32,000 nucleotides of DNA from Candidatus Thalassarchaeaceae archaeon (GTDB lineage Archaea; Thermoplasmatota; Poseidoniia; Poseidoniales; Thalassarchaeaceae): positions 390,001 to 422,000 of the forward strand of contig JBJLBP010000001.1 of assembly GCA_045568075.1 (NCBI GenBank), written 5' to 3'. Positions 7,314 through 28,792 of the stretch are shown piece by piece. The translations under genes were made by a program, and so were the position numbers. Under the pieces are notes generated by a model. The model made no database searches. It had not been told where the DNA came from and was given only the letters and a program-made list of their open reading frames with translations. The first letter of the stretch is position 1, and every line of letters begins with the position of its first letter.

Positions 7314-7361
7314 GCATCCTCGGGAGTAAGTTGATTTCATCCCCGAGTGCGGCAGCCTTCG

Positions 7362-7616: not shown

Positions 7617-7701
7617 TTCAGGTATTCTTCTCACTTCATCGTGAGATTCAACCGAACGTGATTGCGATACGATTCAAAAGGTAGGGGTGAACCCATACTC
7701 G

Positions 7702-10284
7702 ATGCGTCGCATATCCGCCGTGATGATGGTCCTCGTTCTCCTGACCGCGGCAGCACCAGTTATCGATGCTGCAAGCAAGGGTGTGATCTCTTGTACGCCA
7801 GCCGACTTGGAGATGCTTCCTGCTAACTGGGATATCGACGATGGAGCCTGCGTCAGAGTTGATTTGGGCGTCCTATCTCCTGGAGATACGCTTTCCTTCG
7901 ATGTCAACGCGAATACAGATGTTGACTTGCTTCTATTCTCAGCAAGCTCGATTTCCGTCTATCAAAACGAACAAAATTATCGCCATGAAACAGTTTGGCA
8001 GGGCGAGTCTGTATTCGAGTCATTTACTGGAGAAGGCACTTGGCATTGGACCACGCCCGACGATCGTGGCGATACTCGATGGTATCTCGTGCTCGACAAT
8101 ATGGCACACCCGCAGGATCAGGGTAATGGTGCTCAGGGTGGATCTCTGGCTAGTGTAATTCTTGACGTTGAAGAAGTCGATTCACCTGTCTTCGGCGTGG
8201 TTGACACAATCGTTCGCCTCGAAACAGGGGGTCACTCGGTACTCGCAGGTCCTTTGATGCTTGATGAAGGGACTCAAATCAATTTCTTTGCGACAACGAT
8301 GGAGGGGCATCCTGACATTTTCCTCATGACTCAACCCCAACTCGATCTTTACCAGCAAGGTGGAACAGCCGCGACTCGAATCGATGAGACTGACATGTTA
8401 CTGGTTTCTGACGAGCGAACCCTCGCTTGGTCGGTCACATCCGAGTACGCGGGCCAGGATCTCTTCCTCGTCGTCGACAATCGCGCAGGTCCCTCGGGTG
8501 GTGGCGCGGGTACGGGCTATGTCGCGACCACTGTGGTGATGGATTTGGTCCCGGTTCTCAATCCCATGATTACTAATTCATCGACTCTGAGTATAGTCGA
8601 TGTTGGCGCCGAGATTCTTCTCGACGCATCGGAAACACCGAATCTCTCGAATCAGATAGATCGCGAAACAGGATTCCAGTGGGATACCAACGGAGATGGA
8701 TACCACGATACTGCTGGCACTTCGATCATGGTCAGTTGGGACGAGCCGACGCAGATCAGTGTCGGCCTACGCGTCGTCTCCGAGGATGGCCGAAGCGCCA
8801 GTATCTATTTCGACATATCAGTCGAGGATATTTCGCCACCGAGCGTCAGTCTTTCAGCCACCGATACGATACGCAAGGATTTCGATGACCAACTTTTGTT
8901 GACCGCTTCAATCGAGGATAATTGGGGCATTCAAACAGTCGAATGGCTTGTCGATGACGAGGTCATCGATTACTACAGTAATTGGGATTGGCAAGATGGA
9001 AAGACATTCACATTCCGCTTCGATTCATCCTACGAACCCGGCGACCACGAGGTTAAGCTGAGGGTGACTGATAAGGAGAGTCAGATTACTGAAAAGATTG
9101 CAATCATCGATCTTTATGATTCGACTCCACCGATTGTGCCTGAACAGACGGTGGAGATGACAGTGATTTTGGGAGAACCATATCAATTCAACGCTGAGGC
9201 TATGGATGCTGAATCTCCGAATATGCAATTCTACTGGGACTTTGATGCCGAGACGGATAGCGACGACGACGGTATTACCGACAATGATGTAGACGCGAGC
9301 GGTGCAAAGGTCATCCAAGACTTCCAGATTAGAGGCACTATCCAAGTGATTTGCACAGTTGTAAATGATGCTGGAGTTTCAACGCAAGTCACTTACTACG
9401 TGACTGTGCGCTCTCTTGCTGACGACGACTCCGGAATCACTCCAATGGTCATTGCTCTGTTGGCTGTAATTCTGGTTCTACTCTTAGTCGGTGGTGTTGG
9501 CATGATATCGTGGCGCAGAATGTCAAACGCGCGCCTAGAAGCGCTACTCGCCGAGCAGGCCGAAGCCGAGGAAGAAGAACCTCGCGAACTCTCCGTAGAG
9601 GAGCAGAAAGCGATGTTCGGTGCTGGTTCTGTAACAATGGATCAACCCGCTTCGATGTCGACGACATCTCCGTTTGGACAGTATGGCACGGGGATGTCGG
9701 GTGCCAGTGACCCACAGGCGACTATCGGCTCGGATGTGGCGATGGGTGATTCTGACCTTGAGGCTCTGATGAACACACCCGGTCCGATTACCGCAGACGC
9801 ACCATCCAGCCCGGCCGCGGACTTACTCGCTGAATTTGGCGAGGATGATTCGGTTGGCCGAGATGAAATAGTCGAATTTTCACATGATGACGGCGCTGGC
9901 ACCAGCGATGATATTTGGTCACCAGAAGGTGTTGTTGGAGATGAGATGGCAGACGCTTTGCCGGCTCCTCCTCCTCCTGCCCAAGAGCCGGATGCAAATT
10001 CACTACTCGATGATGACCTCCCGACCCCTCCTCCGCCGGTCAGCGAGGATTTACCATCTCCACCAGCACCAGAAGAGGTCGAATCCGATGTGGAAGACGT
10101 AGTGGAAGACGTAGAAGATTCAGAAGATCTGCAAGAATCTGAAGAATCCGAGCCCGAATCCCGACTTGTGCAACAGGATTGTAGCCAGTGTGAGCAGCGA
10201 TTCGAAGTCACACTTCCAGAGGGTCATGATGTTGCTAGGACAGCTTGCCCATCCTGCGGCGCAATTGAGACAGTGAGCCTCTGA
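7702..10284 (+). CDS. Surface protein A: signal peptide, duplicated N-terminal beta module, PKD-like domains, TM helix, acidic/Pro-rich cytoplasmic tail, C-terminal zinc ribbon
   Basis: Signal peptide MRRISAVMMVLVLLTAAAPVIDA (GTG 7687 is the alternative start). PKD-like blocks FQWDTNGDGYHD...VGLRVVSEDG and FYWDFDAETDSDDDGITDNDVD...VICTVVNDAGV. TM helix ITPMVIALLAVILVLLLVGGVGMIS (9436-9510). Tail with PPPP runs and VEDVVEDVED. Zinc ribbon CSQC-x18-CPSC (10180-10257). Confidence 0.85.
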   Translation: MRRISAVMMVLVLLTAAAPVIDAASKGVISCTPADLEMLPANWDIDDGACVRVDLGVLSPGDTLSFDVNANTDVDLLLFSASSISVYQNEQNYRHETVWQGESVFESFTGEGTWHWTTPDDRGDTRWYLVLDNMAHPQDQGNGAQGGSLASVILDVEEVDSPVFGVVDTIVRLETGGHSVLAGPLMLDEGTQINFFATTMEGHPDIFLMTQPQLDLYQQGGTAATRIDETDMLLVSDERTLAWSVTSEYAGQDLFLVVDNRAGPSGGGAGTGYVATTVVMDLVPVLNPMITNSSTLSIVDVGAEILLDASETPNLSNQIDRETGFQWDTNGDGYHDTAGTSIMVSWDEPTQISVGLRVVSEDGRSASIYFDISVEDISPPSVSLSATDTIRKDFDDQLLLTASIEDNWGIQTVEWLVDDEVIDYYSNWDWQDGKTFTFRFDSSYEPGDHEVKLRVTDKESQITEKIAIIDLYDSTPPIVPEQTVEMTVILGEPYQFNAEAMDAESPNMQFYWDFDAETDSDDDGITDNDVDASGAKVIQDFQIRGTIQVICTVVNDAGVSTQVTYYVTVRSLADDDSGITPMVIALLAVILVLLLVGGVGMISWRRMSNARLEALLAEQAEAEEEEPRELSVEEQKAMFGAGSVTMDQPASMSTTSPFGQYGTGMSGASDPQATIGSDVAMGDSDLEALMNTPGPITADAPSSPAADLLAEFGEDDSVGRDEIVEFSHDDGAGTSDDIWSPEGVVGDEMADALPAPPPPAQEPDANSLLDDDLPTPPPPVSEDLPSPPAPEEVESDVEDVVEDVEDSEDLQESEESEPESRLVQQDCSQCEQRFEVTLPEGHDVARTACPSCGAIETVSL
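10090..10113 (+). repeat. 12-nt tandem duplication (GTGGAAGACGTA x2) inside the tail of A
   Basis: Exact tandem copy that encodes VEDVVEDV within the low-complexity acidic tail. Confidence 0.8.
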
Positions 10285-10372
10285 TTCATTTGAATTGAAG
10301 TCGTCCCTCGTCGAGTTCCCGGAACATGGCAAGACGACGCATCAACTACACCTGCCGCCCAAGACCCTAAAT

Positions 10373-10391
10373 CGCACCTCATAGAGGTGCG
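10373..10391 (+). promoter_or_regulatory. Perfect 8-bp hairpin (CGCACCTC-ATA-GAGGTGCG) containing the SD of gene B
   Basis: The inverted repeat is read directly from the sequence. The 3-prime arm GAGGTG (10384-10389) lies 5 nt before ATG 10395, matching the SD spacing seen at other genes here. Confidence 0.55.
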
Positions 10392-10394
10392 CTC

Positions 10395-13300
10395 ATGGAA
10401 CACGGTTCAGTGCGCTTAATCAGCAAAGCGCCGCGAGCCCGAATTTCACTACCAATTCTGATTGTAGCACTATTTCTTCTTCCAACTCTCGCCCCTTTCG
10501 CTGCCGTCAGTGGAGAGGCGAGAATCGAATCTGAGGACTTCGCAATTCTCAATGAGCTCAGCGAAGTCCTCGACCAACGCGAGCAGGTGGTCAGCAGCGA
10601 TACTGTGAGCAAACTTGCTGGACCTTTACTCGATCAAGTTCGGGTCGGTGTACAGGAGACTTCAGTCGCCGATCCACTCCATGATATCGACGAGGCTCTC
10701 GACGAGGTATCAATGGTCGAAACCGCTGCACCACAAGTCATTCATCCCGAACCTTACATCATTCTGACTGACGAAAATAGCCGCCCTCCTGGCGAAGTCA
10801 GAACCATTTGGTCGACTCTTTTCAATCTCACAGATTACGTCATTTGGACACGATATGTAGACGATGAGGGTAATGTCGTCGAGCAATCTGAGACCATAAC
10901 CTTCCTCACATCTCTCCTATCTCTTTTCGACTCTGAGACCGAATTTTTGCTTCATCAGGTCGACATCGACCAGGATGGTGATGACGACATTCAGGTTGGT
11001 CTCAGCATCGAGATCAGTGACCCCGAACTCGATGGAACCACACTTTCAGTCGCGCCTCAACTCGATTACAAGATCAGTGTGCTGCCCTCAAGCATGACTG
11101 ATTCCGATTGGGAAAATCTAGAAACTCTAGAAGTGAGTCTTCTCAAAGCATTCGCGTATTCCGATGGAATCCTTACCGAGGGTGAATCATACGTTTGGGT
11201 TATTGATTCAAAATTCACTCATACACCTTACGATTTCACCCTCGGAGTTGGTCTCGAACGATTCTACTTCGATCTCTCAGAAGCGGGGGCCGATTTCCTC
11301 CTATCGATTTTCAATGCGCTATCCTTCGGCGTGTTCAACGGTGGTGATGAATCTGGAATTACAATCGCTTCAATCGCCGCTCCATACCAGATATCAATAG
11401 ACAATTCCGGCCAGACCGAATGTCCAGATCGCTACTCGCCGATTGAACTCACAACTCTTCCATCCAGTCAAATCTCCTGTGGAGTCACAGCAGGCTTCGG
11501 TTACGTCCACTATTCTCCTCCAAATATCGAAGATGAACGAGATGTCTGGGAGGTGGCCTACATTGAAGCCGCAATTCACCCTAATCGTCTCTCCACCACC
11601 CTCCCTGAACAGCTTGATCTCACAATCCGAACTGATAGCACGATGGCCGACGGCACGGGCAGTGCTGGTGAAAATGGCCTGACAACCGTCGAGTACTGGG
11701 CCGATGAGCGCGCAGACCTCCACATACACTTCCACGAGAACCGCTCAGAGGTTCCACCCGAGAATGCCGATGGAACTTATGGTAACTCAACCGACTCCAT
11801 CGGCTGGCTGCGCGGAATGCCTGCAGGCAGCCTCACCACAGAGGAGATCGATCGCACTTTCACCATGCTCGGTTCAAAGTCCGAGCCTCAACTACCTGGT
11901 GGCCAACCGAATCAACTCGGCCTCATCATCGGTGTCAAGAATTTCACCCGCGATACATCGCAGAACGTCGACGACCCCTCTCTCCCAGTCAATCCAGCAT
12001 ACCCGCCAAAGACTCTCGTTCTGGTAAGGTCAGTCCAATCGCTTGAGGAGGTGGATTATCATTCTTGGATGAAACGTGGTGGCGCGGCCACCGACCATCG
12101 GCGGATCGAAATTACTGCTCAAGACTTACCGACCGCCGTCGTGCTCTTTGGCTCATTTGAGTTAGGTGGGACTGAAGAGGCAGACACAAGTCTCGATTCG
12201 GCACAAAATCTTGATTTCATGTCGAGAATCTTCGATGTTGTCCTGATCAACATAGTCGACCTCTTCCTCGATATCGGCACTATTCTGAACGACATTCCAT
12301 CTGCCACAGTCGACGTCATCAGCGGTGGAGTCGGCGGTTCGGGTGGCCTAACAGGACAGACTCTTCACCTATTGATGAATGATCATTGGAGAGCCGATCG
12401 ACAGGCTAGGTCAATCTCAGAAATCGGCCTGCAGATCGGTTCAAGCTCGCATCCTACGATGCCTGGCGATCATCTGATCCTCGCAAAAGACAGACAGTTG
12501 GAGACAGTTCAAGGGCGTCAGGGTCCGGTGGTGCCGATGGTGGTAGTAGCTGCGAGTTTACGTTTCAGTGGTCTGAGCCAGTTCACTCTTATCGATGATC
12601 TCGAGTCGGAATCCCAACAGGTTTCACTCCTGACTTCGTCGGAAAAACAGTTCTCATTCCTTTACATCGATCACAAACCGAATGATCTCAGCGGCGCAGC
12701 CCATCAAGGCGTCCGAATATCCGATATTCCGGACAATCTCTCCGCCGAACTCACACCCCAACTCGCAACATACCAAGCTAGTTCCTCTATCGATAGTATC
12801 AGTTACACTGGTATTGATGGTGACCAACGGCAGGCGACTCACGTTCTCGATTTGCCTGCCGAGTTTGAGATTGAATTTGGCGATGTGACTACTTGGAGCG
12901 CTTCATCGCCGATTTCTTCCATTCATGCCCAACTCACAGATTCTACAAATCCTGTGACGATGGGCGGCGATCACTTCCTTTTCCATCACGAGCCGTCCGA
13001 TGGTAGCTCGACTATCTCAACTCGTATTTCGGGATTGCAAGAGGTTGGCTGGCGAGCACCAGCCGAACCAGGTGCCAGTGGAGCAATTGGTCGTGGCACC
13101 GCTTTCATGACCGCTGCCGGCGACCGCACGATGAGCATCAATGTCGATCATGCGCCGACTCAGGATGAGGGGGGCTTGTCGGCGCTCGTTCTCATCGATC
13201 CACTTCCATCCACTATCTCGGTCGATATTCCAACGGGAGCCGATGCAGGAAACAGCCTCGTCTTCCCCGAATTGAACACGACTCAAGGTGTCGCTGGCGT

Positions 13301-14762
13301 GGCTTTCTTCCTTGGCGGTTTTGCCGATCTCGGTCGCTCTGTGAACACGGTCCTCGCTGGTGTGACAAGTGAAATTTCGACAGGATCCGATGGTGGCAAT
13401 GGTTCATTCTCTTACGGTCTTCAGCTCGATGCAGACAGTAATTTTGACCTGATTTTCGAAGCCAGCCATGGAAATGGCACTGCGGATGCCCCACCTTGGG
13501 TACACGGAATCGCGCTGAACGCAGCACCTTCAGGAATATCGGATGGCTTCCATATCCGTGGATGGATTCCAGATTTACCTCCGATAATCGATATCTCGGT
13601 CAGTCGAACCCCGACTTCAACCGGTGAAGAATGGGCAATCGCCATGGGTTTGGATGGATGGTTGCCCGCGCGCAGTGAATTCATGCTGAACTCGCGCGGT
13701 ATCAACGGTCAGGACCTGATGATGACACTGCAAGGCTTGACCGTTGGTGAATCAACTGCACTAGGACTCGATTCGGAATTCTTGATCCGAGAAACAAGTG
13801 GTGGGATTACCGAAGTAACAACAACGACTCACTTCGTGATGTCGAATAGACTCGATTGGATTCATGCTCTTCTAATCAATCGAGAGGCCGGCGCACGGAC
13901 GGAGATGCTGATCAATGACATTCCCGAATCCATCGATTTGCGCGCCAGTCTAGGCACGTCCATATCGCTGGATATGACCGTGCCAGATGCATATCGTCGA
14001 GCCGGTCCTGCCGTGGACTCGATGATGATGCAACAGATGCAATGGATGGACGGTTCTTGGTGGCCGGCTACGATTTTCCTGACCGACGTCCCTGACGCGA
14101 TTAATCTCACGACAGAGCCAGATCTCGATTTTGACATCACCAAAAGTCTCGCATTCCAAGGGACTCCTGTACTCGACTTCTCCGCCTCGGCTGATGGAAT
14201 GTCACTCTACATCGAAGCCAACGGCCGCGCTATCAACAGTCGAGGCGAAATCATCCTCCTCGCCGAGGGCATGACCGATCGAATGGTCATCAAACCGACT
14301 GAGGATTATGGTCTCGCGATTCGCAGTGGAGGCGATGGAGTCGATCGAATCTATTTGCGCGCCTCCAATATGCCGACAACTCCTCCTGTTGTCCTCGAAG
14401 AAATGGAGGCGCTTGGCGAGAATTTGCGAAGCGCGACGATTCATGTCATTGAGATAGTCGGCCCATACAGCGTCATTGAGATAGAAGATGTACAAGGTGG
14501 ACGAATCGTTGCATCCGCGCGCGCGACGGCTGAAGTCGAAGCCATTGGTATGACCTTTGATTTGCGTGGCGTTCTACTCGACGCTCAGACCACCGGAGGA
14601 GTACCGACTGGAACCAGTCTTGGGGTAAACGGTCTCGCTTCCGATCTCTCGCTGCTGAATCTAATCCCTGGATTTGAAGGCTCCACCCATCACATAATTG
14701 TCCCGGAGCCTCTCTCATCCGGTGTGCTAACATTCTGCGCTACATTCCTGGGAGGTGACTAA
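10395..14762 (+). CDS. Giant secreted protein B (1455 aa), no recognisable family
   Basis: Uninterrupted 4.4-kb ORF. N-terminal signal/anchor RARISLPILIVALFLLPTLAPFAAVSG. Acidic and Ser/Thr-rich, with a DxDxDG-type loop (DIDQDGDDD, around 10967-11000). No C-terminal TM helix. No catalytic or repeat motif recognised by eye. Confidence 0.85.
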   Translation: MEHGSVRLISKAPRARISLPILIVALFLLPTLAPFAAVSGEARIESEDFAILNELSEVLDQREQVVSSDTVSKLAGPLLDQVRVGVQETSVADPLHDIDEALDEVSMVETAAPQVIHPEPYIILTDENSRPPGEVRTIWSTLFNLTDYVIWTRYVDDEGNVVEQSETITFLTSLLSLFDSETEFLLHQVDIDQDGDDDIQVGLSIEISDPELDGTTLSVAPQLDYKISVLPSSMTDSDWENLETLEVSLLKAFAYSDGILTEGESYVWVIDSKFTHTPYDFTLGVGLERFYFDLSEAGADFLLSIFNALSFGVFNGGDESGITIASIAAPYQISIDNSGQTECPDRYSPIELTTLPSSQISCGVTAGFGYVHYSPPNIEDERDVWEVAYIEAAIHPNRLSTTLPEQLDLTIRTDSTMADGTGSAGENGLTTVEYWADERADLHIHFHENRSEVPPENADGTYGNSTDSIGWLRGMPAGSLTTEEIDRTFTMLGSKSEPQLPGGQPNQLGLIIGVKNFTRDTSQNVDDPSLPVNPAYPPKTLVLVRSVQSLEEVDYHSWMKRGGAATDHRRIEITAQDLPTAVVLFGSFELGGTEEADTSLDSAQNLDFMSRIFDVVLINIVDLFLDIGTILNDIPSATVDVISGGVGGSGGLTGQTLHLLMNDHWRADRQARSISEIGLQIGSSSHPTMPGDHLILAKDRQLETVQGRQGPVVPMVVVAASLRFSGLSQFTLIDDLESESQQVSLLTSSEKQFSFLYIDHKPNDLSGAAHQGVRISDIPDNLSAELTPQLATYQASSSIDSISYTGIDGDQRQATHVLDLPAEFEIEFGDVTTWSASSPISSIHAQLTDSTNPVTMGGDHFLFHHEPSDGSSTISTRISGLQEVGWRAPAEPGASGAIGRGTAFMTAAGDRTMSINVDHAPTQDEGGLSALVLIDPLPSTISVDIPTGADAGNSLVFPELNTTQGVAGVAFFLGGFADLGRSVNTVLAGVTSEISTGSDGGNGSFSYGLQLDADSNFDLIFEASHGNGTADAPPWVHGIALNAAPSGISDGFHIRGWIPDLPPIIDISVSRTPTSTGEEWAIAMGLDGWLPARSEFMLNSRGINGQDLMMTLQGLTVGESTALGLDSEFLIRETSGGITEVTTTTHFVMSNRLDWIHALLINREAGARTEMLINDIPESIDLRASLGTSISLDMTVPDAYRRAGPAVDSMMMQQMQWMDGSWWPATIFLTDVPDAINLTTEPDLDFDITKSLAFQGTPVLDFSASADGMSLYIEANGRAINSRGEIILLAEGMTDRMVIKPTEDYGLAIRSGGDGVDRIYLRASNMPTTPPVVLEEMEALGENLRSATIHVIEIVGPYSVIEIEDVQGGRIVASARATAEVEAIGMTFDLRGVLLDAQTTGGVPTGTSLGVNGLASDLSLLNLIPGFEGSTHHIIVPEPLSSGVLTFCATFLGGD

Positions 14763-14763
14763 T

Positions 14764-15333
14764 ATGGGCTTGTTAGAGAAGATGCGCAATGCCGAGGAAG
14801 AGACTCGAGAGGATATAGACGAGGCCACTGAGCGCGCTCACGAAATTCTGCAAATCGTTGGCGAGCGTGTCGAGCAAGTTCGACCGAGTCGAGTGATATT
14901 CGCCTCGGTCGCCGTTCTGTTGATTGTCAGCGGGATGTTCATCATTGGAACTTGGTTAGTCCCATACGACCGGACGAGCGTAGATGTGGTATACATTCAA
15001 GGGGGCTCTGGTCACGTTGTTTTGGTCGAATTAGACAACAAAGGATCTCGCTCGATAACCGACGTTAATCTTGACATTCGATTCCTCGATGATGCAAGTC
15101 TCGAAATCGGTAGATCTAACTTCCAAGCTGGTGAAATCGCCGCCCATACTTCGATTGCTGGAGACGACTTGGAATTGCTCATCGCCGGCGCTTCAGTCTG
15201 GGAGAATTACACGATTGAAATCATTCTCGATTACACATATGGAGGCGATGATTATCACGAACGCTGGACCTACAATGTCGGTGGGTGGCAGATGGAGATG
15301 TTCACTTACAATGCCCCGATTCACTTCTTCTGA
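14764..15333 (+). CDS. Small single-pass membrane protein C (189 aa) with a beta-sandwich-like ectodomain
   Basis: ATG lies 1 nt after the TAA of B, and GGAGGTGA (14751-14758) lies inside the end of B. The protein has an acidic helical N-terminus (EKMRNAEEETREDIDEATERAHE), the TM helix VIFASVAVLLIVSGMFIIGTWLV, and a ~125-aa domain with a CARDB-like strand motif (VLVELDNKGSRSITDVNLDIRF). Confidence 0.8.
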   Translation: MGLLEKMRNAEEETREDIDEATERAHEILQIVGERVEQVRPSRVIFASVAVLLIVSGMFIIGTWLVPYDRTSVDVVYIQGGSGHVVLVELDNKGSRSITDVNLDIRFLDDASLEIGRSNFQAGEIAAHTSIAGDDLELLIAGASVWENYTIEIILDYTYGGDDYHERWTYNVGGWQMEMFTYNAPIHFF

Positions 15334-15350
15334 CACGACCTACGGTCGTG
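15334..15350 (+). promoter_or_regulatory. Hairpin H1: CACGACC-TAC-GGTCGTG
   Basis: A perfect 7-bp inverted repeat with a 3-nt spacer starts on the base after the TGA of gene C. Confidence 0.5.
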
Positions 15351-15375
15351 ATTCAAGACCATCCATCCAACCCGA

Positions 15376-18300
15376 ATGCTGAAAGGCGACTCAATGGGGC
15401 AGCGACTCATGACCAAACGCATCGCGGTTGCGATACTCGGGATTTTCCTCCTATCTCTCGCTCCGGCTGGTGGGGTTCATGTTGAGTCAACTGGGGATTC
15501 GGAGGAAATACTGGACCCAGTTGTGAATCGTATTGGGATTGCACCTGATCCAGATTCAATCCAAGATCTTGGTTCACCACGAGTCCTTGAGGGTCTCGAG
15601 AGGACTCGTGAGAATACGGCCGACTCTACAATCGGCGTTTACACCGAACTCGGCCTCATTCCATCGGTTCACTTGCCACGAGCTCTAGCTGAGCCTCGAA
15701 GCGACTTGGCGATGGTTATCGTCGATGGAGATGTTGGCATCTGGGATGCTCGTATTGCTGTCGAGGAAGCGGCTGATGTTGAGATTCGCTCGACAATTCC
15801 TCCATCGGGATTCCTCGTGCAGGGTGATGAAAAGCAGATTTCATTGCTCGCTGAGGAATCGATAGTAGTCGCAGTCCACTCTGTCTCGTCCGGCCTGCTC
15901 GCCCATCCGCTTCTGCGGCTGGTCGAAGAAGGCCCGATGATGGTCGAGTTGCTCGGCTGGAAGGATGACGAATTACAACGCCACGCCGAGCCAGGCCTCG
16001 GTCTGGAAGATTCGTTAGAAGCAGTTGCAGAACTTTGGTTGACCGATTCATGGAGCCCAGAAGAGGGGCGTGTATGGGGCGTCGTTGATATCTCCGATAT
16101 CGGCAGTGTCCTACAGCACCCCTCAGTCGCTTGGGTTGCGCCGCTACCGGTGCTAGAAACCAAAAATGACAATGCCCGAACCCACATGGGAATCGATACG
16201 GTCGACTCCTTCTTCGTCACTGATCTAGATGGCTCCGGCCAAACTGTTGCCGTCGGCGATTCGGGCATTGACCATGATCATGGGGATTTCAACAACCGAA
16301 TCGTCGGTCGAACTTCTGTCACCCCTGGAGATTCCTCGACCGCTGATCCATCGGATGGTCACGGAACCCACGTGGCTTGCACAGTGCTGGGTTCCGGAAT
16401 GCGCAGCAGCGGGACTTACAACGGCGTCGCTCCCGGTGCTAGCCTCTACTTCCAAGCAATGGAGGATGATGACACAGGTGCTCTCTACAGTTACGGCATT
16501 AACAGCATGTTGAATTCTGCTTACAATGCTGGTGCCCGCCTGCACACCAATAGCTGGGGAGCGGGCAGTGGACACGGATCATATTCGACCCAGTCCGAGG
16601 ATGCGGACGACCGCACCTCGACTTGGGATCAATACTGGAGTCACGAGGGTATGACTGTGCTCTTCGCGGCTGGCAACGAGCGTAATGACGGAGTTTCACC
16701 ACCTGGTACTGCGAAGAATGTCATCACAGTTGGTGGCCACAAGAATCGCTACAGTGGCTCTCCTGACGAGATGTATTACTGGAGTAGCCGCGGTCCAACT
16801 GACGATGGCCGTCTCAAGCCCGACCTTGTAGGACCGGGAGACGGTGTTCGATCTTGCCTCGCTCAAGAGGCTCAGGATGCAGATTCAGGATGGTCAAACA
16901 ACTGGTACATCGAGTACAGCGGCACTTCCATGTCGACTCCAGCCGCTGCCGGAGCCGCCGCCCTCGTGCGCGAGTATCTGATGGAAGTGGCAAATCGACC
17001 GGCTCCACAGGGTGCTTTGGTCAAGGCACTCCTGATTCTTGGCGCCGAGGACATGGGAAATCGTAACATTCCGAATAATGACGAGGGCTGGGGAAGAGTC
17101 AATCTGATTAATTCACTCATCCCCGATAGCGACGAAGGTATCTTCGTCGATGATCGTAGTAGAATTCGAAGTGGCGAGACCCAAGAATACACCTTCGAAA
17201 TCACTCGCGCTGGTGAGCCTCTGAAGGTGGTCCTCGCTTGGTCGGACTATCCTGGTTCATCATCTTCAAGCAATCAATTACGTAACGATTTGAATCTTGA
17301 AGTGATTCATCCGAGCGGTGGAACTACCTACAAAGGAAATGTCTTCAATTCAGGGCGTTCAATCGCTGGTGGCTCCTTCGATTCAAAGAATAATGTCGAG
17401 GTTGTTCTAGTCGATAATGCCGCTGTCGGGACATGGACTGTCCGTGTCAAGGACGATTATCACGGCGGCAGCCGCACCTGGCAGCCATTCGCTCTCGCGG
17501 TTCGTGGAGTGAACGTCAACGATCTCTCACCAGACCCAACTTTTGCTCCTGATGTATCGGTTACTCCAACCATTCCTCAGATTGGAGACTCGGTTCAGAT
17601 TGGAATCACTCTCGAGAATCTAGGAGCAGGATCTGTCTCAGATCTCGAAGTAATGGCGCGTGCAGATGGGTCTCACATCTCGACCCAAACCATCTCTATG
17701 ACTCCGGGTGAATCGGTCGGAATGACTTGGAATTGGACACCGACAAGCGAGGGACTGATAGATCTGTCATTCCACATTGATCCAAACGAACTTGTCGACG
17801 AATCCAACGAAGGAAATAACCTACTCACACACACAGTAATCATCAGTGCACCCGGAGTTCGAGTGACTTCGGATGAACCATTCATGACTCTTGGGGAGGC
17901 TGACGACAGCTCAACCACTTGGTCACTTACTCTGACGAATACCGCCCTCTTCGAGACCAATGCAACAATCGAAGCCTCCTCTCCTATTCGACAGAGCGAT
18001 GGCCTCGAATTCGATTGGTTCTACTCTTTCACATCGAATACGTTCAACCTGCTGGAAGCGGAATCTGTTGAGATTGGATTCACTCTGATCCATCCAGCTC
18101 CTCCGCAGCCTGGAACCTATGTCATGACGATTACAGGAACTGATGTCGAGAATGAGATTGAATCGATGCTCGACATCTACTTCGAGGTGCCCATTCTTGC
18201 AGCCGCCGATGTTGAAATCACATCAGGCCAAGTCCAAGTCAGTCCAATTTCTAAGACTCAAATTCAGGTCTTCGTAACCAATGTGGGCAATGGCCCTCAG

Positions 18301-19896
18301 ACCTACGATGTCGAACTCAGCTCTCCTGCGGGCTGGCACCTCGGCCTCGACGTGCTCGGAGCCTTCGCAGGTTCCTCACACGGCTCGACTGGAACTCTCT
18401 TCGTCGGCGAGCGCCGGACAATTGACATCACGGTGAATCCACCCGGCGCGATGATCCCAGCCGGCTCGGTATTCGACGCCGGCTTGACGATCCATTCTCG
18501 CGTCAGTAGTGATTCTTGGTCGGTACCGATTCCTCTCGAGGTCATCATCATCGACCAACTTTCGACCACACCAATCAGTGATGGCATTGAGCACGAAGTC
18601 TCGCCCGATTCGACTCTCGTGCTCGATATCGATTTCCTCAACAACGGTAATCGAGACCTGACGATGACCCCGTATTCGCGAGGTATCCCATCGGGTTGGA
18701 CTGTAGTAGGAGGTCTTGACACACTCTTCGCACCTACCGGCTCAACGACTAGTTGGTCGGTGACTCTGCAAGGCAATGGCAGGGCGACCAGCGGCGACTT
18801 CAAGCTCCGCTTCGCCACTGATGACGGCTTCGCTATCGACTGGAACAGAACCATCGATGTCCTCTCAGCCGCGATACCCGCTCTGACTTTCCACCAAGTC
18901 GTTCTTGGCGACGGCACATCTGCTGACACACCACTAGGAGTCGGAGCCCATCCCGTCGGAACAGGCTTCGATTTGGCTTGGGAGGTCGAGAATGAAGGTA
19001 CCTCAACTTGGAAGCCGACCACGAGTATCATCATCCCTGAAGGTGATTGGTTGGGGACTTGCCCAACTACACCATCCTCTCTCGCTCCCGGCGCGAGTAG
19101 CATCATTTGGTGCACCGTGACGATTCCACTATCGGCTGAGGCCGGGAGTGAACCATACGTCACTCTCAGGATGGAAGGCGAAGGTATCGAGATCGAGAAT
19201 TCGATCTCGCTACGCGTAGACTCTGTCTCCGCGGTGACTTGGAATCTGCGAACCCAAGCCCAGGCACACGAGGGCTACCCTATCCAGATGACTGTGGATA
19301 TTCAGAACGTTGGTAATGCGCAAGTGAATCATCGCTTAGATGTCACAGCACCATCTGGCTGGAACGTCTTCATCAATGACGAGGTCCTAGTCATTCTGAG
19401 TCCCGGCGAATCACGTTCGATCGTCATTGAATTCACCCCCAATGCTGGCAGCGATGGAATCATCGAGATGTCACTTCGCTATGGCGAGGACATTCAGGGG
19501 TCCACCTTCTCCTTCGATGTCGATGTGATGCCCGGTAAGGGCGGTGATAGCAGCCTTGGTTCAACACTCATTCCAATCTTCTTCATCCTCATTATCGCAA
19601 TCATCGGTGGGGCCGGATTCTATGTCTTCAAGCAGCGCGGAGGCAAACTCGATTCCATCATCTCAAAAGAGGCTGTGAGCAAGATTTCCGAGTCGCTGAA
19701 ACTTAGTGAAGAAGAGAGCGGATCTGGTATCGAATGTTGGGTTTGTAGTCGTGATATATTCGAGGGTAAAGCTCACGCTTGTGGCAATTGTGGAGCCCGC
19801 TATCACCAAGCCGGACAGATTCGAGGATGCGATATCCTCTCCGTTGGCCGCTGTTTGCACTGTAACGCAGATTCGAGCGAGCTCGTCGAGGCTTGA
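15376..19896 (+). CDS. Membrane-tethered subtilisin-like serine protease D (peptidase S8) with a long repeat stalk and a cytoplasmic Cys/His zinc-finger-like tail
   Basis: Catalytic triad motifs: VAVGDSGID (Asp, 16258-16260), DGHGTHVA (His, 16360-16362), SGTSMSTPAAAGAAAL (Ser, 16927-16929), plus the oxyanion HTNSWG. P-domain-like block LAWSDYPG...LRNDLNLEV...NNVEVV...GTWTVRV. CARDB signature DESNEGNN. At least five repeats of the type VTNVGNG...SPAGW. TM helix 19561-19629. Cys/His module 19735-19863. Alternative starts at 15394 and 15409. Confidence 0.9.
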   Translation: MLKGDSMGQRLMTKRIAVAILGIFLLSLAPAGGVHVESTGDSEEILDPVVNRIGIAPDPDSIQDLGSPRVLEGLERTRENTADSTIGVYTELGLIPSVHLPRALAEPRSDLAMVIVDGDVGIWDARIAVEEAADVEIRSTIPPSGFLVQGDEKQISLLAEESIVVAVHSVSSGLLAHPLLRLVEEGPMMVELLGWKDDELQRHAEPGLGLEDSLEAVAELWLTDSWSPEEGRVWGVVDISDIGSVLQHPSVAWVAPLPVLETKNDNARTHMGIDTVDSFFVTDLDGSGQTVAVGDSGIDHDHGDFNNRIVGRTSVTPGDSSTADPSDGHGTHVACTVLGSGMRSSGTYNGVAPGASLYFQAMEDDDTGALYSYGINSMLNSAYNAGARLHTNSWGAGSGHGSYSTQSEDADDRTSTWDQYWSHEGMTVLFAAGNERNDGVSPPGTAKNVITVGGHKNRYSGSPDEMYYWSSRGPTDDGRLKPDLVGPGDGVRSCLAQEAQDADSGWSNNWYIEYSGTSMSTPAAAGAAALVREYLMEVANRPAPQGALVKALLILGAEDMGNRNIPNNDEGWGRVNLINSLIPDSDEGIFVDDRSRIRSGETQEYTFEITRAGEPLKVVLAWSDYPGSSSSSNQLRNDLNLEVIHPSGGTTYKGNVFNSGRSIAGGSFDSKNNVEVVLVDNAAVGTWTVRVKDDYHGGSRTWQPFALAVRGVNVNDLSPDPTFAPDVSVTPTIPQIGDSVQIGITLENLGAGSVSDLEVMARADGSHISTQTISMTPGESVGMTWNWTPTSEGLIDLSFHIDPNELVDESNEGNNLLTHTVIISAPGVRVTSDEPFMTLGEADDSSTTWSLTLTNTALFETNATIEASSPIRQSDGLEFDWFYSFTSNTFNLLEAESVEIGFTLIHPAPPQPGTYVMTITGTDVENEIESMLDIYFEVPILAAADVEITSGQVQVSPISKTQIQVFVTNVGNGPQTYDVELSSPAGWHLGLDVLGAFAGSSHGSTGTLFVGERRTIDITVNPPGAMIPAGSVFDAGLTIHSRVSSDSWSVPIPLEVIIIDQLSTTPISDGIEHEVSPDSTLVLDIDFLNNGNRDLTMTPYSRGIPSGWTVVGGLDTLFAPTGSTTSWSVTLQGNGRATSGDFKLRFATDDGFAIDWNRTIDVLSAAIPALTFHQVVLGDGTSADTPLGVGAHPVGTGFDLAWEVENEGTSTWKPTTSIIIPEGDWLGTCPTTPSSLAPGASSIIWCTVTIPLSAEAGSEPYVTLRMEGEGIEIENSISLRVDSVSAVTWNLRTQAQAHEGYPIQMTVDIQNVGNAQVNHRLDVTAPSGWNVFINDEVLVILSPGESRSIVIEFTPNAGSDGIIEMSLRYGEDIQGSTFSFDVDVMPGKGGDSSLGSTLIPIFFILIIAIIGGAGFYVFKQRGGKLDSIISKEAVSKISESLKLSEEESGSGIECWVCSRDIFEGKAHACGNCGARYHQAGQIRGCDILSVGRCLHCNADSSELVEA

Positions 19897-19898
19897 AC

Positions 19899-19918
19899 CG
19901 CGACCCTACGGGCTCGCG
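19899..19918 (+). promoter_or_regulatory. Hairpin H2: CGCGACCC-TAC-GGG(C)TCGCG
   Basis: An 8-bp stem with one bulged C starts 2 nt after the TGA of gene D. A second small hairpin follows (CCCT-TAG-AGGG, 19929-19939). Confidence 0.45.
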
Positions 19919-19959
19919 TGGCCCGAAGCCCTTAGAGGGGCCCGATTCTCGGCAGAGCG

Positions 19960-22644
19960 ATGAATCGTGCTGCTTTGGCCCGTTTGCTGACGGTTCTGCT
20001 TCTTGTCACGATGCTCTCTCCTATGGTTCAGGCTGAGGTTGATCCACGTTTGACAGCGAGTCCGATGGCTCAGGAAGCCGACGCAGATGAACCAGCTGAG
20101 TACGATATCACCGTTCACAACGATGGCGACGATGATATGGCCGTATCTCTGAGCACTTCGCAAGACGCATCGGATTGCAATGGATTCAGTTCCTCAATCG
20201 AACAGGTCTCGGGTACCATAGGTTCTGGTGAATCTGAGACTGTCACACTCACAGTGACCGTTAACGATCAAGCCAATGGTGAGTGTGAGACAACTGTCCA
20301 AGCGACTGCACAAGTCGCTGATGGAGCGCCAGGTACTCCGAAGAATGCCGATATCACAGTCACCACCACCGCCGGAGACGGCGGTGGACTCTATGCAGTC
20401 AAACTCTCGACCGATGAACCGAGTGTCGATTATGATGGAGACGACGATATCGTTTGGGAGGTCGAGGTGGAGAATACCGGTGAACAGCAGGCGAATGTCC
20501 AACTCGAGATGACTAGTGAGGATGATTGCGAGTCAGACGATCTCACAGCAACCGTCGATCCAGCGGTAGTACAGCTTGAATCCGGTGACAAGGAAACAGT
20601 CGACGTGACAGTCGAAATTCCCGACGGTAGTTCCACCGAGGCTGGTCAGCACTGTTTCCTATTGAGGGCTGAAGTCACCAACGACCCCAATCAAGCCGAC
20701 CGAGCCGGAGACAATCTAACTCTCAGTCTCAATATTCCAGAAGTCAAGGAGTGCGACGGATCTCTTTCAACCACATCTCACAGTCTCGATCCATTTGAGA
20801 CAGCGGAGAATAGCTTTGAAGTCGAAAATACGGGAAATACCGAGTGGACTGTTCAGATGCAAGCCCAATCGCCGGGAACCGACATCACGGGTTGGGTTGA
20901 GTTTGATAGCCCGAAGACAAAATTACTCGCCAAACCCGGTAATTCCGACGATAGCCACACCTTCACATTCTCAGTGACTCCTGATGATTCAGCCGAAGCC
21001 GGCTCTCAGATTGAAATCAAGATTCAAGGACGTTCGAACCAAGGCGTCGGCTGCGAACAGATTCTCACAGTCACAATCGGTCAAGTTCATGATGCGAAAT
21101 TGACCCTCAGTACATCGAAACTTTCCAATGTAGAACCGGGGAGTTCAGATTCAGTCACTTTGACGGTGGAGAATCGCGGTAATGGGCTCGATACCTTTTC
21201 TCTGACTACGATTGACCTCCCTGAAGGTTGGCAAATTTCATTCTCTCAATCTTCGGTCACCGTCAACAGTCGTCATGATTCTAACAACAAGGTTTCTCTG
21301 ACCGCCACAATCAATGTCCCTGCAGATGCTCTCGCGGGCGATAACACGATTGAATTCGGCGTGACTGTTAGTGGTTCGACGACTATTCTAGCCAGCAAGG
21401 TTCTGACGGTATCGGTCGCGGCAAGGCACGACCTGACAGCTGATATGCTCTCAACTCAGCAGACGGGTCGCTCAGGGCAGGTCGTCCAGTTCCCGATAGA
21501 TATCACGAACACCGGGAATATCCGTGATACGTTCAAGCTCCAAGTCTGCGATCCGAGTGACCAGACAGGATGCAATCCTCCGATGTGGGCTGCGTCTTAT
21601 TCTGACACAAATGGAAATTCAATTTCGCAGTTGATTCTTGATCCTAGCGAGTCTAAGCGAGTCTTCCTCGATGTTACCGTCGAGGGTGAGGAAGACGCGG
21701 ATTCAGTCACAATTCTCTCACGCGTGGCGATATTTGGAACCAGCGAGAAGGTCGAGCATACGATTAGCGTGATCGTATCAAACTACGATTACGGCATGGC
21801 AATCTCGCCCGAAATGCCGGGTCCGATAGCCGGGCAGCTCGACGTTGTTCTACCACCAGGTGGAGTCACAGAAATCAATTTCTGGCTCGAGAATACAGGT
21901 AATTTCCCCGGCGGAGATAAAGCCGTCATATCGATGGCGGGAATGGAATCATCGGTTCTGAGGAGTGTTCTGATCGATGGCGTGGTCGTCAATGATAACA
22001 TCCCAGTTCCATCTGGTGATCGCGTTCTCATTACGATTCAACTCGAGGTACTGGAAGGTGTGGGAAGTGGAACTACTGGCGTGATAAAGATCAGCGCTTC
22101 CTCCGAGAAGAATGCTGCTGAGAGCACCTCAGTTGATCTCGCCTTCGAGGTCAGGACAATCCATGATTTGCAATTCACACTCGAAGGCGAAGAGGATGCG
22201 ACGACGGATGAGAAAACCAGTGTTGAGTTCATTTTGTATGTGACTAATCATGGAAACATCGTCGAGACAGTCCAGATCCTAACAAGCGATTCTCTCCGTG
22301 GATGGACGGTCAATGTCATCCCTGACGAATTCCAACTCTCACCTGGGAACTCTCGAACCATCACAGTGAGGGTGACTCCTCCGGCGGGGATGATCCAAGA
22401 TGACACCTATAGATTCACCATCACAGTCCAGCCCAAGGGCATGCCCGTAGCGGGCGAACCCCTCGATCTCGAAGTAACTGCTGAGGTCTCCCCTGGACTC
22501 AACTGGCTGAGCGAGCAGAACGAGCAGATTCTGGTTTACGGATTGACAGGCATTGGGGCTCTGCTCGTCGTCATTCTCTTCTTCCGCTCGCGCACAGAGA
22601 ACCGTCGTATCATCGAGGCGCTCGAGCACGAATCGAGCGACTGA
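19960..22644 (+). CDS. Surface protein E: signal peptide, ~7-8 tandem NEW3/CARDB-like beta-sandwich repeats, C-terminal TM anchor (COG1470-like architecture)
   Basis: Signal peptide MNRAALARLLTVLLLVTMLSPMVQA. Recurrent motifs VENTGEQQANV, VENTGNTEWTV, VENRGNGLDTFSL...LPEGWQISF, ITNTGNIRDTFKL, LENTGNFPG, VTNHGNIVETVQI...LRGWTVNV. TM helix ILVYGLTGIGALLVVILFF (22528-22584) followed by RSRTENRR. Confidence 0.85.
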   Translation: MNRAALARLLTVLLLVTMLSPMVQAEVDPRLTASPMAQEADADEPAEYDITVHNDGDDDMAVSLSTSQDASDCNGFSSSIEQVSGTIGSGESETVTLTVTVNDQANGECETTVQATAQVADGAPGTPKNADITVTTTAGDGGGLYAVKLSTDEPSVDYDGDDDIVWEVEVENTGEQQANVQLEMTSEDDCESDDLTATVDPAVVQLESGDKETVDVTVEIPDGSSTEAGQHCFLLRAEVTNDPNQADRAGDNLTLSLNIPEVKECDGSLSTTSHSLDPFETAENSFEVENTGNTEWTVQMQAQSPGTDITGWVEFDSPKTKLLAKPGNSDDSHTFTFSVTPDDSAEAGSQIEIKIQGRSNQGVGCEQILTVTIGQVHDAKLTLSTSKLSNVEPGSSDSVTLTVENRGNGLDTFSLTTIDLPEGWQISFSQSSVTVNSRHDSNNKVSLTATINVPADALAGDNTIEFGVTVSGSTTILASKVLTVSVAARHDLTADMLSTQQTGRSGQVVQFPIDITNTGNIRDTFKLQVCDPSDQTGCNPPMWAASYSDTNGNSISQLILDPSESKRVFLDVTVEGEEDADSVTILSRVAIFGTSEKVEHTISVIVSNYDYGMAISPEMPGPIAGQLDVVLPPGGVTEINFWLENTGNFPGGDKAVISMAGMESSVLRSVLIDGVVVNDNIPVPSGDRVLITIQLEVLEGVGSGTTGVIKISASSEKNAAESTSVDLAFEVRTIHDLQFTLEGEEDATTDEKTSVEFILYVTNHGNIVETVQILTSDSLRGWTVNVIPDEFQLSPGNSRTITVRVTPPAGMIQDDTYRFTITVQPKGMPVAGEPLDLEVTAEVSPGLNWLSEQNEQILVYGLTGIGALLVVILFFRSRTENRRIIEALEHESSD

Positions 22645-27232: not shown

Positions 27233-28225
27233 ATGAACGATGAACAAGAATACAACACCGGCCACCCTCACGCGATCCCGAACTTCCGTAACCTGATTAT
27301 CAGGCCAATGTGGATTACGATGAAGACGGCGCTTCGAACCGTACCATTCCTCGGTCGCCTCGGTATTCTGAAGAACAATTATCACGGTAAACAGGTCAAT
27401 CTGAAGGATGATTTCACCCTCTCTCGAATCGGTGACGACCACCTCTCCGAGGGACACACGTATTCGGCTGACCGCGAGTCTACTGATCTGCTTCCATTCC
27501 TTGAGCGCCCAGTGACCGTGATGTACCCTTACGAGCGCCTTGAAGACATGGAGCCTTGGCTCTTCGTCCCTGGAAATTATAACGGTCGAATCGGTATCGT
27601 TTGGGAGACCTGTACCGCCTGCAAAGCCTGCATTCGTGCTTGCCCAAACGACTGCCTCCACATGACTTCGGAGGTCCGTGTCAATGTTCTTGACACGGCT
27701 GAAGAAGGAGATGAATGGCACGGATATGGGTCCGAGTTCGAAACCGGCGGATACGCAGCCAAGCCTCGTGAGGATTTCGAAGAGATCGAAGAATTTGACC
27801 TCGTAAACGAGCACTCAGCGGTTCCGCAGCAATACGACTTCGCCGAGGTGATCGACATATCTGGTGACACAGCAACCGTCCGTTGGATGGATGGCTCTGG
27901 CATCGAAGAAATCAGTACAAGCGAGCTCAAGCCAGCCGAGACAGACATAGTCAGCGGCCGTATCGATATGGGCCGCTGCATGTTCTGCGGTCTTTGCGCT
28001 GAGGCATGTCCGTTCGAGTCGTTCTTCATGACCAACGAGTACGATGGAATGTCAGGTTACTCACGCGATGACCTTTGGTTCGACGCAGACCGAACTCGTG
28101 TCCTTCCTGCGGTCCATCAGGAGCGCGTCGACATGGAACTCGCTAAGCGCGCGAAGAAAGAGCAAACCAAGCGCGAAAAGAAGGCTGCTAAGGCGGCTAA
28201 GGCGGCTAAGGAAGCGGAGGCTTGA
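27233..28225 (+). CDS. nuoI: Complex I subunit I (2x[4Fe-4S] ferredoxin-type), expanded (330 aa)
   Basis: Two CxxCxxCxxxCP motifs are present (CTACKACIRACP and CMFCGLCAEACP), plus TVMYPYER. The motifs are 111 residues apart. The C-terminus is a Lys/Ala-rich tail (KRAKKEQTKREKKAAKAAKAAKEAEA). GGAGGTGA lies at 27221-27228. Confidence 0.9.
   Translation: MNDEQEYNTGHPHAIPNFRNLIIRPMWITMKTALRTVPFLGRLGILKNNYHGKQVNLKDDFTLSRIGDDHLSEGHTYSADRESTDLLPFLERPVTVMYPYERLEDMEPWLFVPGNYNGRIGIVWETCTACKACIRACPNDCLHMTSEVRVNVLDTAEEGDEWHGYGSEFETGGYAAKPREDFEEIEEFDLVNEHSAVPQQYDFAEVIDISGDTATVRWMDGSGIEEISTSELKPAETDIVSGRIDMGRCMFCGLCAEACPFESFFMTNEYDGMSGYSRDDLWFDADRTRVLPAVHQERVDMELAKRAKKEQTKREKKAAKAAKAAKEAEA
28187..28213 (+). 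repeat. 9-nt tandem repeat (GCTAAGGCG x2 plus GCTAAGGAA) in the nuoI tail
   Basis: Read directly from the sequence; it encodes AKAAKAAKE. Confidence 0.8.
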
Positions 28226-28229
28226 ACCG

Positions 28230-28499
28230 ATGAACATCGATTTCGAGGCCATTGCATTCGTTATCATGGCGCTCATAGCCATCCTCGGTGCACTCGGCTG
28301 TGTTTACGCGCGCCGTGTCGCCCACTCACTTCTTTCGTTGATGATGACCTTCTTCGCCGTAGCCGGCGTGATGGTTCTAGCCCACGCTGAGATGTTGGCG
28401 GCTATCCAGATTCTCGTCTATCTCGGCTCGGTCATGCTAGTCGTTCAATTCGGTGTCATGCTGACCCGCCGCCAAATCCAGGAGGGAGATGTCCTATGA
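28230..28499 (+). CDS. nuoJ1: Complex I subunit J, N-terminal half (split gene, TM1-3)
   Basis: NuoJ N-terminal pattern MNIDFEAIAFVIMALIAILGALGCVYARRVAHSLLSLMMTF...AAIQILVYLGSVMLVVQFGVML. GGAGG lies upstream. The longer ORF from 28044 overlaps nuoI out of frame. Confidence 0.8.
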   Translation: MNIDFEAIAFVIMALIAILGALGCVYARRVAHSLLSLMMTFFAVAGVMVLAHAEMLAAIQILVYLGSVMLVVQFGVMLTRRQIQEGDVL

Positions 28500-28792
28500 A
28501 GGCAGTCAGTATGTTCGCCCGCCTTGGTGTCTTCACCTTTGTTCTAGTTCTACTGCGCGAAGTAATGGAGCATCCAATGTGGGAAAATGAACCTGTAGGA
28601 GCCCCAACAACTCTTGAATTCGCAGTATCAATTCTCGATGATTGGGCACTCGTCACCGTAGTACTCGGGATTCTTCTTTCTATGGCGATGATTGGTGCCT
28701 CCTATCTTGTTCGTGACGAGCGCCTTGTCAACCTCCTCTACGATATGGGTTCAGAAGACTCAGTTCGATTATCTGGTGATAGCGATGATTGA
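28496..28792 (+). CDS. nuoJ2: Complex I subunit J, C-terminal half (split gene, TM4-5)
   Basis: ATGA overlap with nuoJ1, preceded by GGAGGGAG. The C-terminal block ALVTVVLGILLSMAMIGASYLVRDE resembles the canonical last helix of NuoJ. Confidence 0.7.
   Translation: MKAVSMFARLGVFTFVLVLLREVMEHPMWENEPVGAPTTLEFAVSILDDWALVTVVLGILLSMAMIGASYLVRDERLVNLLYDMGSEDSVRLSGDSDD

Follow-up and report, generated by a model that had tools for sequence, protein, structure and literature searches.

Marine Group II (MGII) archaea, which are uncultured, rank with the most abundant archaea of the plankton and are ecologically important. Their S8 proteases, present in one to four copies in all metagenome-assembled genomes, have been treated as extracellular peptidases and have repeatedly been cited as the basis of a protein-degrading lifestyle (PMC6864105). 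Treble-clef zinc domains consist, in order, of a zinc knuckle, a primary beta-hairpin whose turn carries ligands, an alpha-helix, a second knuckle and an optional closing strand, and in the cross-braced folds the second site, made up of the hairpin turn and the knuckle after the helix, is rubredoxin-like without redox activity (PMC4678705). Here we analysed an S8 protease whose C-terminus carries a module of seven Cys and one His. It is encoded by gene D in a stretch of 32,000 nucleotides (nt) of contig JBJLBP010000001.1, hereafter the window, which the names of orthologues place in the Thalassarchaeaceae, that is Marine Group IIb (MGIIb), of the order Poseidoniales. The original prediction for this DNA knew of no S8 peptidase with a cytoplasmic zinc finger; we likewise found no subtilase with a cytoplasmic zinc domain (protease, transmembrane (TM) helix, RING-like domain) described in the literature, which agrees with that statement and does not prove it.

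The Cys7His module of protease D

The final 59 codons of D code for a putative metal-binding domain with eight ligands (Cys7His) that, according to its models, folds independently. The features of the gene are as follows, with protein positions in amino acids (aa):

15376-19896, + strand: gene D, 1506-aa protease of S8 (KP-43-like) type, predicted to be a type-I membrane-anchored protein with a cytoplasmic zinc tail (open reading frame list and translation)
15376..15486, + strand: N-terminal signal-like segment, a basic n-region and the hydrophobic core IAVAILGIFLLSLAPAGG (hydropathy peak at aa 11-37)
16231..17094, + strand: Peptidase_S8 catalytic domain, aa 286-573 (Pfam PF00082, E 9.9e-46)
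17548..19560, + strand: stalk of CARDB, NPCBM_assoc and immunoglobulin-like (Ig-like) domains from protease to membrane (Pfam)
19561..19629, + strand: single C-terminal TM helix STLIPIFFILIIAIIGGAGFYVF, aa 1396-1418, 23 residues (hydropathy)
19630..19716, + strand: predicted cytoplasmic juxtamembrane linker, a basic patch, then EAVSKISESLKL, then an acidic stretch (orthologue tails)
19717..19893, + strand: 59-aa Cys7His module as modelled, with its ligand core at 19735-19863 (invariant ligands, AlphaFold, fold matches)

The ligand motif, CWVCSRDIFEGKAHACGNCGARYHQAGQIRGCDILSVGRCLHC, covers aa 1454-1496 (nt 19735-19863) and has the spacing C-x2-C-x11-C-x2-C-x4-H-x7-C-x7-C-x2-C, with C1454, C1457, C1469, C1472, H1477, C1485, C1493 and C1496 as ligands. 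It lies in a tail of 88 aa (aa 1419-1506, nt 19630-19893), and the stop codon follows at 19894-19896. Motif, spacing, TM helix and coordinates, as the original prediction had given them, were all confirmed in the DNA and its translation. The tail has 7 Cys, against 4 in the 1395-aa ectodomain. If Cys were as frequent as in the ectodomain, a stretch of 44 residues would hold 7 or more with a binomial probability of 5.6e-11; the clustering of Cys in the tail is not due to chance.

We compared the module between orthologues. Among the 120 best orthologue clusters, 73 were full-length (at least 57% identity), and all eight ligands and their spacing were identical in 73/73, although these clusters contained 57 distinct module sequences. 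The Trp after the first Cys, S5, A15, the G-A-R-Y before the His, Q28 and G31 were also invariant in these clusters. Two alignments of the module were used, a less diverse one (A1) and one of 22 sequences reaching down to 35% identity (A2). In A2 the eight ligands and G-A-R remained invariant, loop length varied only between the second and third Cys (10-11 residues) and between the His and the fifth Cys (4-7 residues), and the charge of the module was near neutral, without a basic surface. Codon differences between the module and its orthologues were mostly synonymous (26:8 and 25:11). A scan of one genome per GTDB species returned 300 relatives, of which we took the best 80 loci. These all came from Poseidoniales (Marine Group II) and represented both families, Thalassarchaeaceae and Poseidoniaceae. 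The ligands were counted as invariant in 80/80 loci, with 79 direct matches and one locus (L069) that contains ambiguous bases; a further locus (L062) matches the motif in an open reading frame shortened by a masked run of N. In all 80 loci the module ended 10-14 residues short of the stop codon in a D orthologue of about 1500 aa, which is the length of D orthologues across the Poseidoniales. Free variation of the ligands among orthologues, which would have spoken against the original prediction, can thus be discarded order-wide. Since the ligands are conserved in the clusters, in A2 and in the loci, and synonymous codon changes are in excess, the zinc module is therefore ancestral, strongly constrained, nearly universal in Poseidoniales and nearly specific to D.

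An exhaustive hidden Markov model (HMM) search with the module profile against 1.84 billion representative proteins (E ≤ 1e-3) returned 41 proteins, the genuine ones being C-terminal ends of D orthologues. Matches in a single stretch had the module at their extreme C-terminus and, where their length allowed, were collinear with the C-terminal ectodomain of D. Matches in several stretches (P0135-P0137, P0141, P0144, P0145, P0148, P0154, P0155 and P0160) were C2H2 arrays or other repeat proteins, which we discarded as noise. P0142 and P0149 were considered as a second architecture and rejected: their match to D is confined to the module, and the parts upstream look like fragmentary or chimeric calls. 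The module family thus appears to be restricted to Poseidoniales and essentially exclusive to this protease.

D is a subtilase with intact catalytic motifs (Asp in DSGID at 295, His in HGTHV at 329 and Ser in GTSMS at 516), scoring 156.8 bits with Peptidase_S8 (PF00082) against a cut-off of 21.8; the KP-43 protease of Bacillus (1wmd) matches aa 265-693 with E 3.7e-71. P_proprotein (PF01483) is a weak match in the D of the window (18.2 bits against a cut-off of 21) and is recorded for many D orthologues, while the top NCBIfam match, T7SS_mycosin, lies far under its cut-off. In the stalk, CARDB matches aa 725-818 (E 1.1e-20), NPCBM_assoc matches aa 1300-1360 (E 9.9e-10), and there are other Ig-like domains. 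A Kyte-Doolittle scan of the whole protein (19-residue window) found just two hydrophobic segments, aa 11-37 and aa 1390-1420. The C-terminal helix is the hydropathy maximum of the protein (2.5 over 19 residues) and is followed directly by KQRGGK, with R/K-rich residues at the same place in all orthologue clades. By the hydropathy rule this is the pattern of a type I (N-out, C-in) single-pass protein. D has a signal-like N-terminus, a protease of secreted type, Ig domains of adhesion type and a single stop-transfer helix, which basic residues follow. By the positive-inside rule, its protease and Ig-like stalk should lie outside the cell and its Cys/His tail in the cytoplasm, as had been predicted. 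In a reducing compartment, CxxC knuckles and an invariant His would point to metal binding rather than to disulfides. In the linker, the segment EAVSKISESLKL is conserved within the MGIIb zinc clade, and relatives of Marine Group IIa (MGIIa) have a longer, Pro-rich linker.

The tail could in principle be an extracytoplasmic disulfide-rich domain, behind a segment that does not span the membrane or in an inverted topology, given that two hydrophobic segments do not by themselves fix the orientation of a protein. We give this next to no chance. The segment is strongly hydrophobic over its 23 residues and is followed at once by basic residues in each clade, CxxC knuckles together with an invariant His are signatures of metal sites, and the ectodomain is nearly free of Cys. 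Neither of the two outcomes that the original prediction had named as fatal to it was seen, since hydropathy did not suggest a non-spanning segment and the Pfam scans gave no match to known extracellular Cys-rich families.

Predicted fold, probable zinc sites and family assignment

We modelled the 59-aa module with AlphaFold using A1 and A2. The predicted local distance difference test score of the module was 87.9 with A1 and 90.0 with A2, and all five A2 models scored at least 85. Both models contain, according to DSSP, an N-terminal strand, a C-x2-C knuckle, a beta-hairpin (19-22/28-30), a one-turn helix (40-43) directly after the fifth Cys, a second knuckle and a closing strand (56-58). The CxxC pairs fall at positions 7-10, 22-25 (the hairpin turn) and 46-49, and the His ends strand 2. 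This order (knuckle, hairpin with ligands at its turn, helix, second knuckle, closing strand) is that of a treble clef, and the eight conserved Cys/His ligands in four pairs are those expected of a RING/PHD-like one. The original prediction had likened the C4HC3 ligand order to PHD and RING variants, and two confident models with a RING/PHD-like fold support that likeness.

Searching the PDB with Foldseek, we found RING domains first (RING1B, BMI1, PCGF5, Bre1, Rad18 and TRIM RINGs; probability 0.94-0.99, TMq 0.56-0.64, root-mean-square deviation 2.1-3.7 Å), followed by rubredoxins with TMt of about 0.55 over 51 columns. As the element order of the models fits the description of treble clefs and the fold matches are to RINGs and rubredoxins, site 1 would be formed by C1454/C1457 and H1477/C1485 and a rubredoxin-like site 2 by C1469/C1472 and C1493/C1496.

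The module matched several Pfam families below their thresholds. Prok-RING_1 (PF14446) was the most consistent, matching 21/22 A2 members (best E 6.6e-5) and spanning profile positions 6-51 of 54 in the MGIIa versions; five members scored singly reached 13-19 bits against a gathering score of 29.1. DZR (PF12773) matched 19/22 members (best E 2.4e-5), and five members scored singly reached 14.5-20 bits against a cut-off of 27.3; the third pair does not form the knuckle of that family. The C1 domain and PHD matched more weakly than these two families, PHD (PF00628) with E 0.054 and 14 bits against a cut-off of 24. Used as profiles against PDB sequences, A1 and A2 gave no significant match, the best being a zinc-finger fragment of ARHGEF2 (9h1o_C, 0.0028) and the K3 RING-CH (0.0047), and no NCBIfam model matched the zinc tail. 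Canonical PHD spacing is C-x2-C-x9-21-C-x2-4-C-x4-5-H-x2-C-x12-46-C-x2-C; the first five ligands of the module fit it, the first half being PHD-like (C-x2-C-x10-11-C-x2-C-x3-[YF]-H), but H-x4-7-C and C-x7-C do not. For working purposes the module is RING/PHD-like, yet it is no demonstrable member of any curated family.

The matches to DZR bring up a double zinc ribbon with sequential ligation, in which the first four Cys would form site 1 and the His and the last three Cys site 2, and which would serve only as a rigid, passive cytoplasmic stopper that stabilises or locks the C-terminal anchor without a specific partner. The numbers for DZR are comparable to those for Prok-RING_1, C-x2-C-x10-11-C-x2-C is a typical ribbon spacing, and protein A, encoded upstream of D, has a plain ribbon at the equivalent position. 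However, H-x4-7-C is no zinc knuckle, which would leave the second ribbon irregular, and the models align in full length to RINGs and over 51 columns to rubredoxin, so that the second and fourth CxxC pairs would share a site (PMC4678705). Furthermore, the invariant residues that are not ligands (the Trp after the first Cys and the G-A-R-Y before the His) suggest a functional surface rather than a stopper. We rate this explanation as rather unlikely. The original prediction had considered it an equally good reading of the motif; on the element order of the models, the cross-brace would be preferred.

Tail exchange, proposed role and gene neighbourhood

Orthologues P0075-P0120 (50-54% identity) have the same ectodomain and helix and a tail without Cys. 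This tail, which is not the version found in the window (an example is L001:14240-14515), combines an acidic linker with an invariant motif, L-[QE]-x-[FY]-x-[DE]-[YH]-P-G-W-L-W-D-x4-[EQ]-E-W-[VI]-x-D-P-x-[YHF] (YPGWLWD…EEWVPDP). No Pfam or NCBIfam model matched the motif, and a word-indexed search with the Trp-tail profile found only fragments of <100 aa. The motif resembles a WW domain without its middle strand. In a neighbour-joining tree of the ectodomain, the Trp-tail sequences, a subclade of the Thalassarchaeaceae, formed a single clade, whose sister is the MGIIb zinc clade and which lies within zinc-bearing lineages that include MGIIa; from this nesting it follows that the zinc module is ancestral and was replaced once. 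A short aromatic and acidic peptide taking the place of a folded zinc domain is typical of docking and atypical of enzymes and nucleic-acid binders, and the swap therefore suggests that the D tail is an exchangeable docking handle. If the tail were a passive stopper, its loss would not call for a second strictly conserved motif in its place.

Taken as a whole, the best explanation, which we hold with moderate confidence, is that the tail is a non-catalytic, two-zinc, RING-like cytoplasmic docking module on an intact KP-43-like protease. The module would bind two Zn ions in a RING/PHD-like cross-brace and act as a protein-protein docking element without catalysis; through it, the cell-bound protease would be tied to, or placed at, a partner or site in the interior of the cell. 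By extension, the envelope proteins encoded with D in the A-E block, all of which have conserved cytoplasmic ends, may be positioned along with it. The main conserved S8 protease of MGII would then be a membrane-anchored enzyme and not a free exoenzyme, with a strictly conserved intracellular zinc domain and a place in a five-gene envelope cluster, and should be viewed as cell-bound, positioned and possibly regulated from inside. The 59-aa module also offers a small, expressible handle for partner finding.

It should be noted that several observations weigh against this explanation. The best Foldseek match to the PDB has E 0.049, and none reaches E ≤ 1e-3. Every Pfam match of the module is under its gathering score (at most about 19 bits in the members examined, against 29.1 for Prok-RING_1), and DZR, a sequential double ribbon, scores about level with Prok-RING_1. 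H-x4-7-C and C-x7-C lie outside the classical RING/PHD ranges. The cross-brace is deduced from the order of secondary-structure elements and from fold matches, and the topology from hydropathy. In the neighbourhoods examined, no candidate partner gene co-varied with the type of tail.

A true RING-type E3-like or signalling domain, an archaeal counterpart of PA-TM-RING or RNF43-type proteins that couples events outside the cell to SAMP or ubiquitin-like (Ubl) modification or degradation, is in our view quite improbable. Catalytic RING E3 domains are the best fold matches, Prok-RING_1 is the most consistent Pfam match, and eukaryotic TM-RING proteins share the layout of ectodomain, TM helix and cytosolic RING (PMC4021871). 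However, all of the matches are sub-threshold, the last C-x2-C pair lacks a Pro, a short Trp motif can stand in for the domain, and no E1, E2 or Ubl genes were found in the 32-kb window or related loci, to which that search was confined rather than whole genomes. RING E3s have a hydrophobic residue two positions after the first Cys that contacts the E2, such as Ile383 of c-Cbl; at this position the module has I/V/L in MGIIb as against N/T/S/A/G in MGIIa, so that the contact is not conserved. We see no more than a slim chance that the tail is a functional RING-type adaptor, one that connects extracellular encounters of the protease with the ubiquitin-like modification, turnover or positioning of internal proteins, or that it anchors A-E to a cytoskeletal or division scaffold. 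If true, the RING-type adaptor would be a precursor, or an analogue, in archaea of the transmembrane RING receptors of eukaryotes.

The recurrent fold matches to rubredoxins (TMt 0.55), the similar C-x2-C-G knuckle and acidic C-terminal strand, and the position of D-E directly upstream of nuoA throughout the order could speak for a rubredoxin-like iron (redox) domain, perhaps linked to the adjoining nuo (complex I) operon. This is very improbable. The rubredoxin family itself was unmatched in the Pfam scans, and the LapB rubredoxin-type zinc ribbon matched only weakly (5/22 members, best E 0.53). Eight ligands point to two sites, and a Cys3His site like one of these is a feature of structural zinc domains; the second site of RING-like folds resembles rubredoxin without redox activity (PMC4678705). 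The Trp-tail clade has the same nuo adjacency and not a single Cys in its tail.

The proteins encoded around D are listed below.

7687-10284, + strand: protein A, 865 aa, with PKD domains
10180..10257, + strand: C-terminal zinc ribbon of protein A, C-x2-C-x18-C-x2-C, at the end of an acidic, Pro-rich tail of about 230 aa, predicted to be cytoplasmic
10395-14762: protein B, 1455 aa, no known relatives
14755-15333: gene C
19960-22644: gene E, with Ig-like repeats

A, B, C and E are large single-pass or secreted proteins. Upstream of the A-E block are genes for HisRS, FtsZ, a TPR protein, L15e and a PRC-barrel protein, and downstream is the nuo operon. The block (7687-22644 in the window; loci L001-L084) kept its gene order, its orientation and its place immediately upstream of nuoA in both Poseidoniales families, and the order B-C-D-E-nuoA was found in 12/12 loci checked, in which D identity was 37-68%. 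E has a conserved tail (RSR.EN..I.EAL), C a conserved N-terminus, predicted to be cytoplasmic, and A a long, acidic, Pro-rich tail. The block looks like a core envelope complex.

That protein A also ends in a zinc ribbon, as the original prediction had stated, was borne out, Zn_ribbon_Nudix scoring 26.6 bits on the A tail alone against a cut-off of 25.6. The further proposal that both tails bring their proteins to one and the same partner found no support: the ribbon is retained in A orthologues of both D-tail types, including those of the Trp-clade genome L001 and the zinc-clade genome L003, while the D module is swapped for the Trp motif, and no co-variation of the A and D tails was seen between these two genomes. 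The other role suggested in the original prediction, that the tails might signal substrate engagement to the cell interior, is speculative. The A tail (9600-10284 in the window) is extremely acidic, with repeated LP-x-PPPP-type proline motifs ahead of the ribbon, and its length varies widely: protein A comprises 865 aa in the window but 734 aa in L001, and in L003, where there is a long EP-repeat, it comprises 850 aa.

Protein B had no Pfam, NCBIfam or PDB relative. Its C-terminus (14690-14762; also in L001 and L003) has the conserved sequence [VA]-PEP-[LF]-[ST]-S-[GA]-[IV]-LT..AT[LF]..GG, which resembles a PEP-CTERM-type sorting signal without the basic cluster. The stop of B (14762) overlaps the start of C (14755), which suggests translational coupling. 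The small PRC-barrel gene (7347-7616, + strand) is flanked by L15e and gene A in the window, L001 and L003, and the FtsZ gene (3344-4489, - strand) lies about 3 kb upstream of the PRC-barrel region. Proteins of the PRC-barrel type (CdpB) act in archaeal cell division, and their genes often lie beside translation genes (bioRxiv 10.1101/2023.03.28.534520); the PRC-barrel protein is a possible candidate partner for the cytoplasmic tails. In the nuo operon, the nuoJ-like gene (Oxidored_q3, 28044-28792) appears to be divided between two adjacent open reading frames, 28044-28499 and 28496-28792; as the split is also seen in L001 and L003, it is probably a genuine two-gene arrangement and not a frameshift.

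Comparison with known systems

The module is most like the cross-braced binuclear treble clefs of RING and PHD type, including Prok-RING_1, with which it shares eight ligands, the C4HC3 order, the element order of the models and the RING fold matches; with PHD fingers it also shares C-x2-C ... C-x2-C-x4-H and an aromatic residue before the His. It differs from them in having H-x4-7-C rather than H-x2-C, a very short last loop (x7), an unconserved E2-contact position and no PHD-type Trp before the last pair. It also differs in being fixed at the predicted cytoplasmic C-terminus of a protease, in occurring in Poseidoniales only and in its sub-threshold HMM scores. DZR domains likewise have four Cys/His pairs in about 45 residues, but the third pair of D (H-x4-7-C) is no knuckle, and both models and fold matches favour cross-bracing.

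In its architecture, D resembles the PA-TM-RING proteins (RNF13, GRAIL/RNF128 and Godzilla) and RNF43/ZNRF3, which have a signal peptide, an extracellular or luminal domain, a single TM helix and a cytosolic RING-like domain (PMC4021871). The eukaryotic proteins combine a PA or PA-like ectodomain that is not catalytic with a RING of proven E3 activity, whereas D has an active-type S8 protease, lacks a PA domain and is unlikely to act as an E3. The resemblance is one of architecture, as far as the predicted layout of D goes, and not of descent. Furin/PC7-type convertases and the mycosin MycP of type VII secretion have an S8 domain, a beta-sandwich or P-like domain, a C-terminal TM helix and a cytoplasmic tail, as D appears to have. 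Their tails are short linear-motif peptides, that of furin being a docking or sorting handle, whereas the D tail is modelled as a folded zinc domain, and the catalytic part of D is closest to Bacillus KP-43 and not to kexins or mycosins. Set beside these systems, what appears to be new in D is a lineage-specific, unclassified family of putative prokaryotic RING-like binuclear treble clefs, placed in a new architecture.

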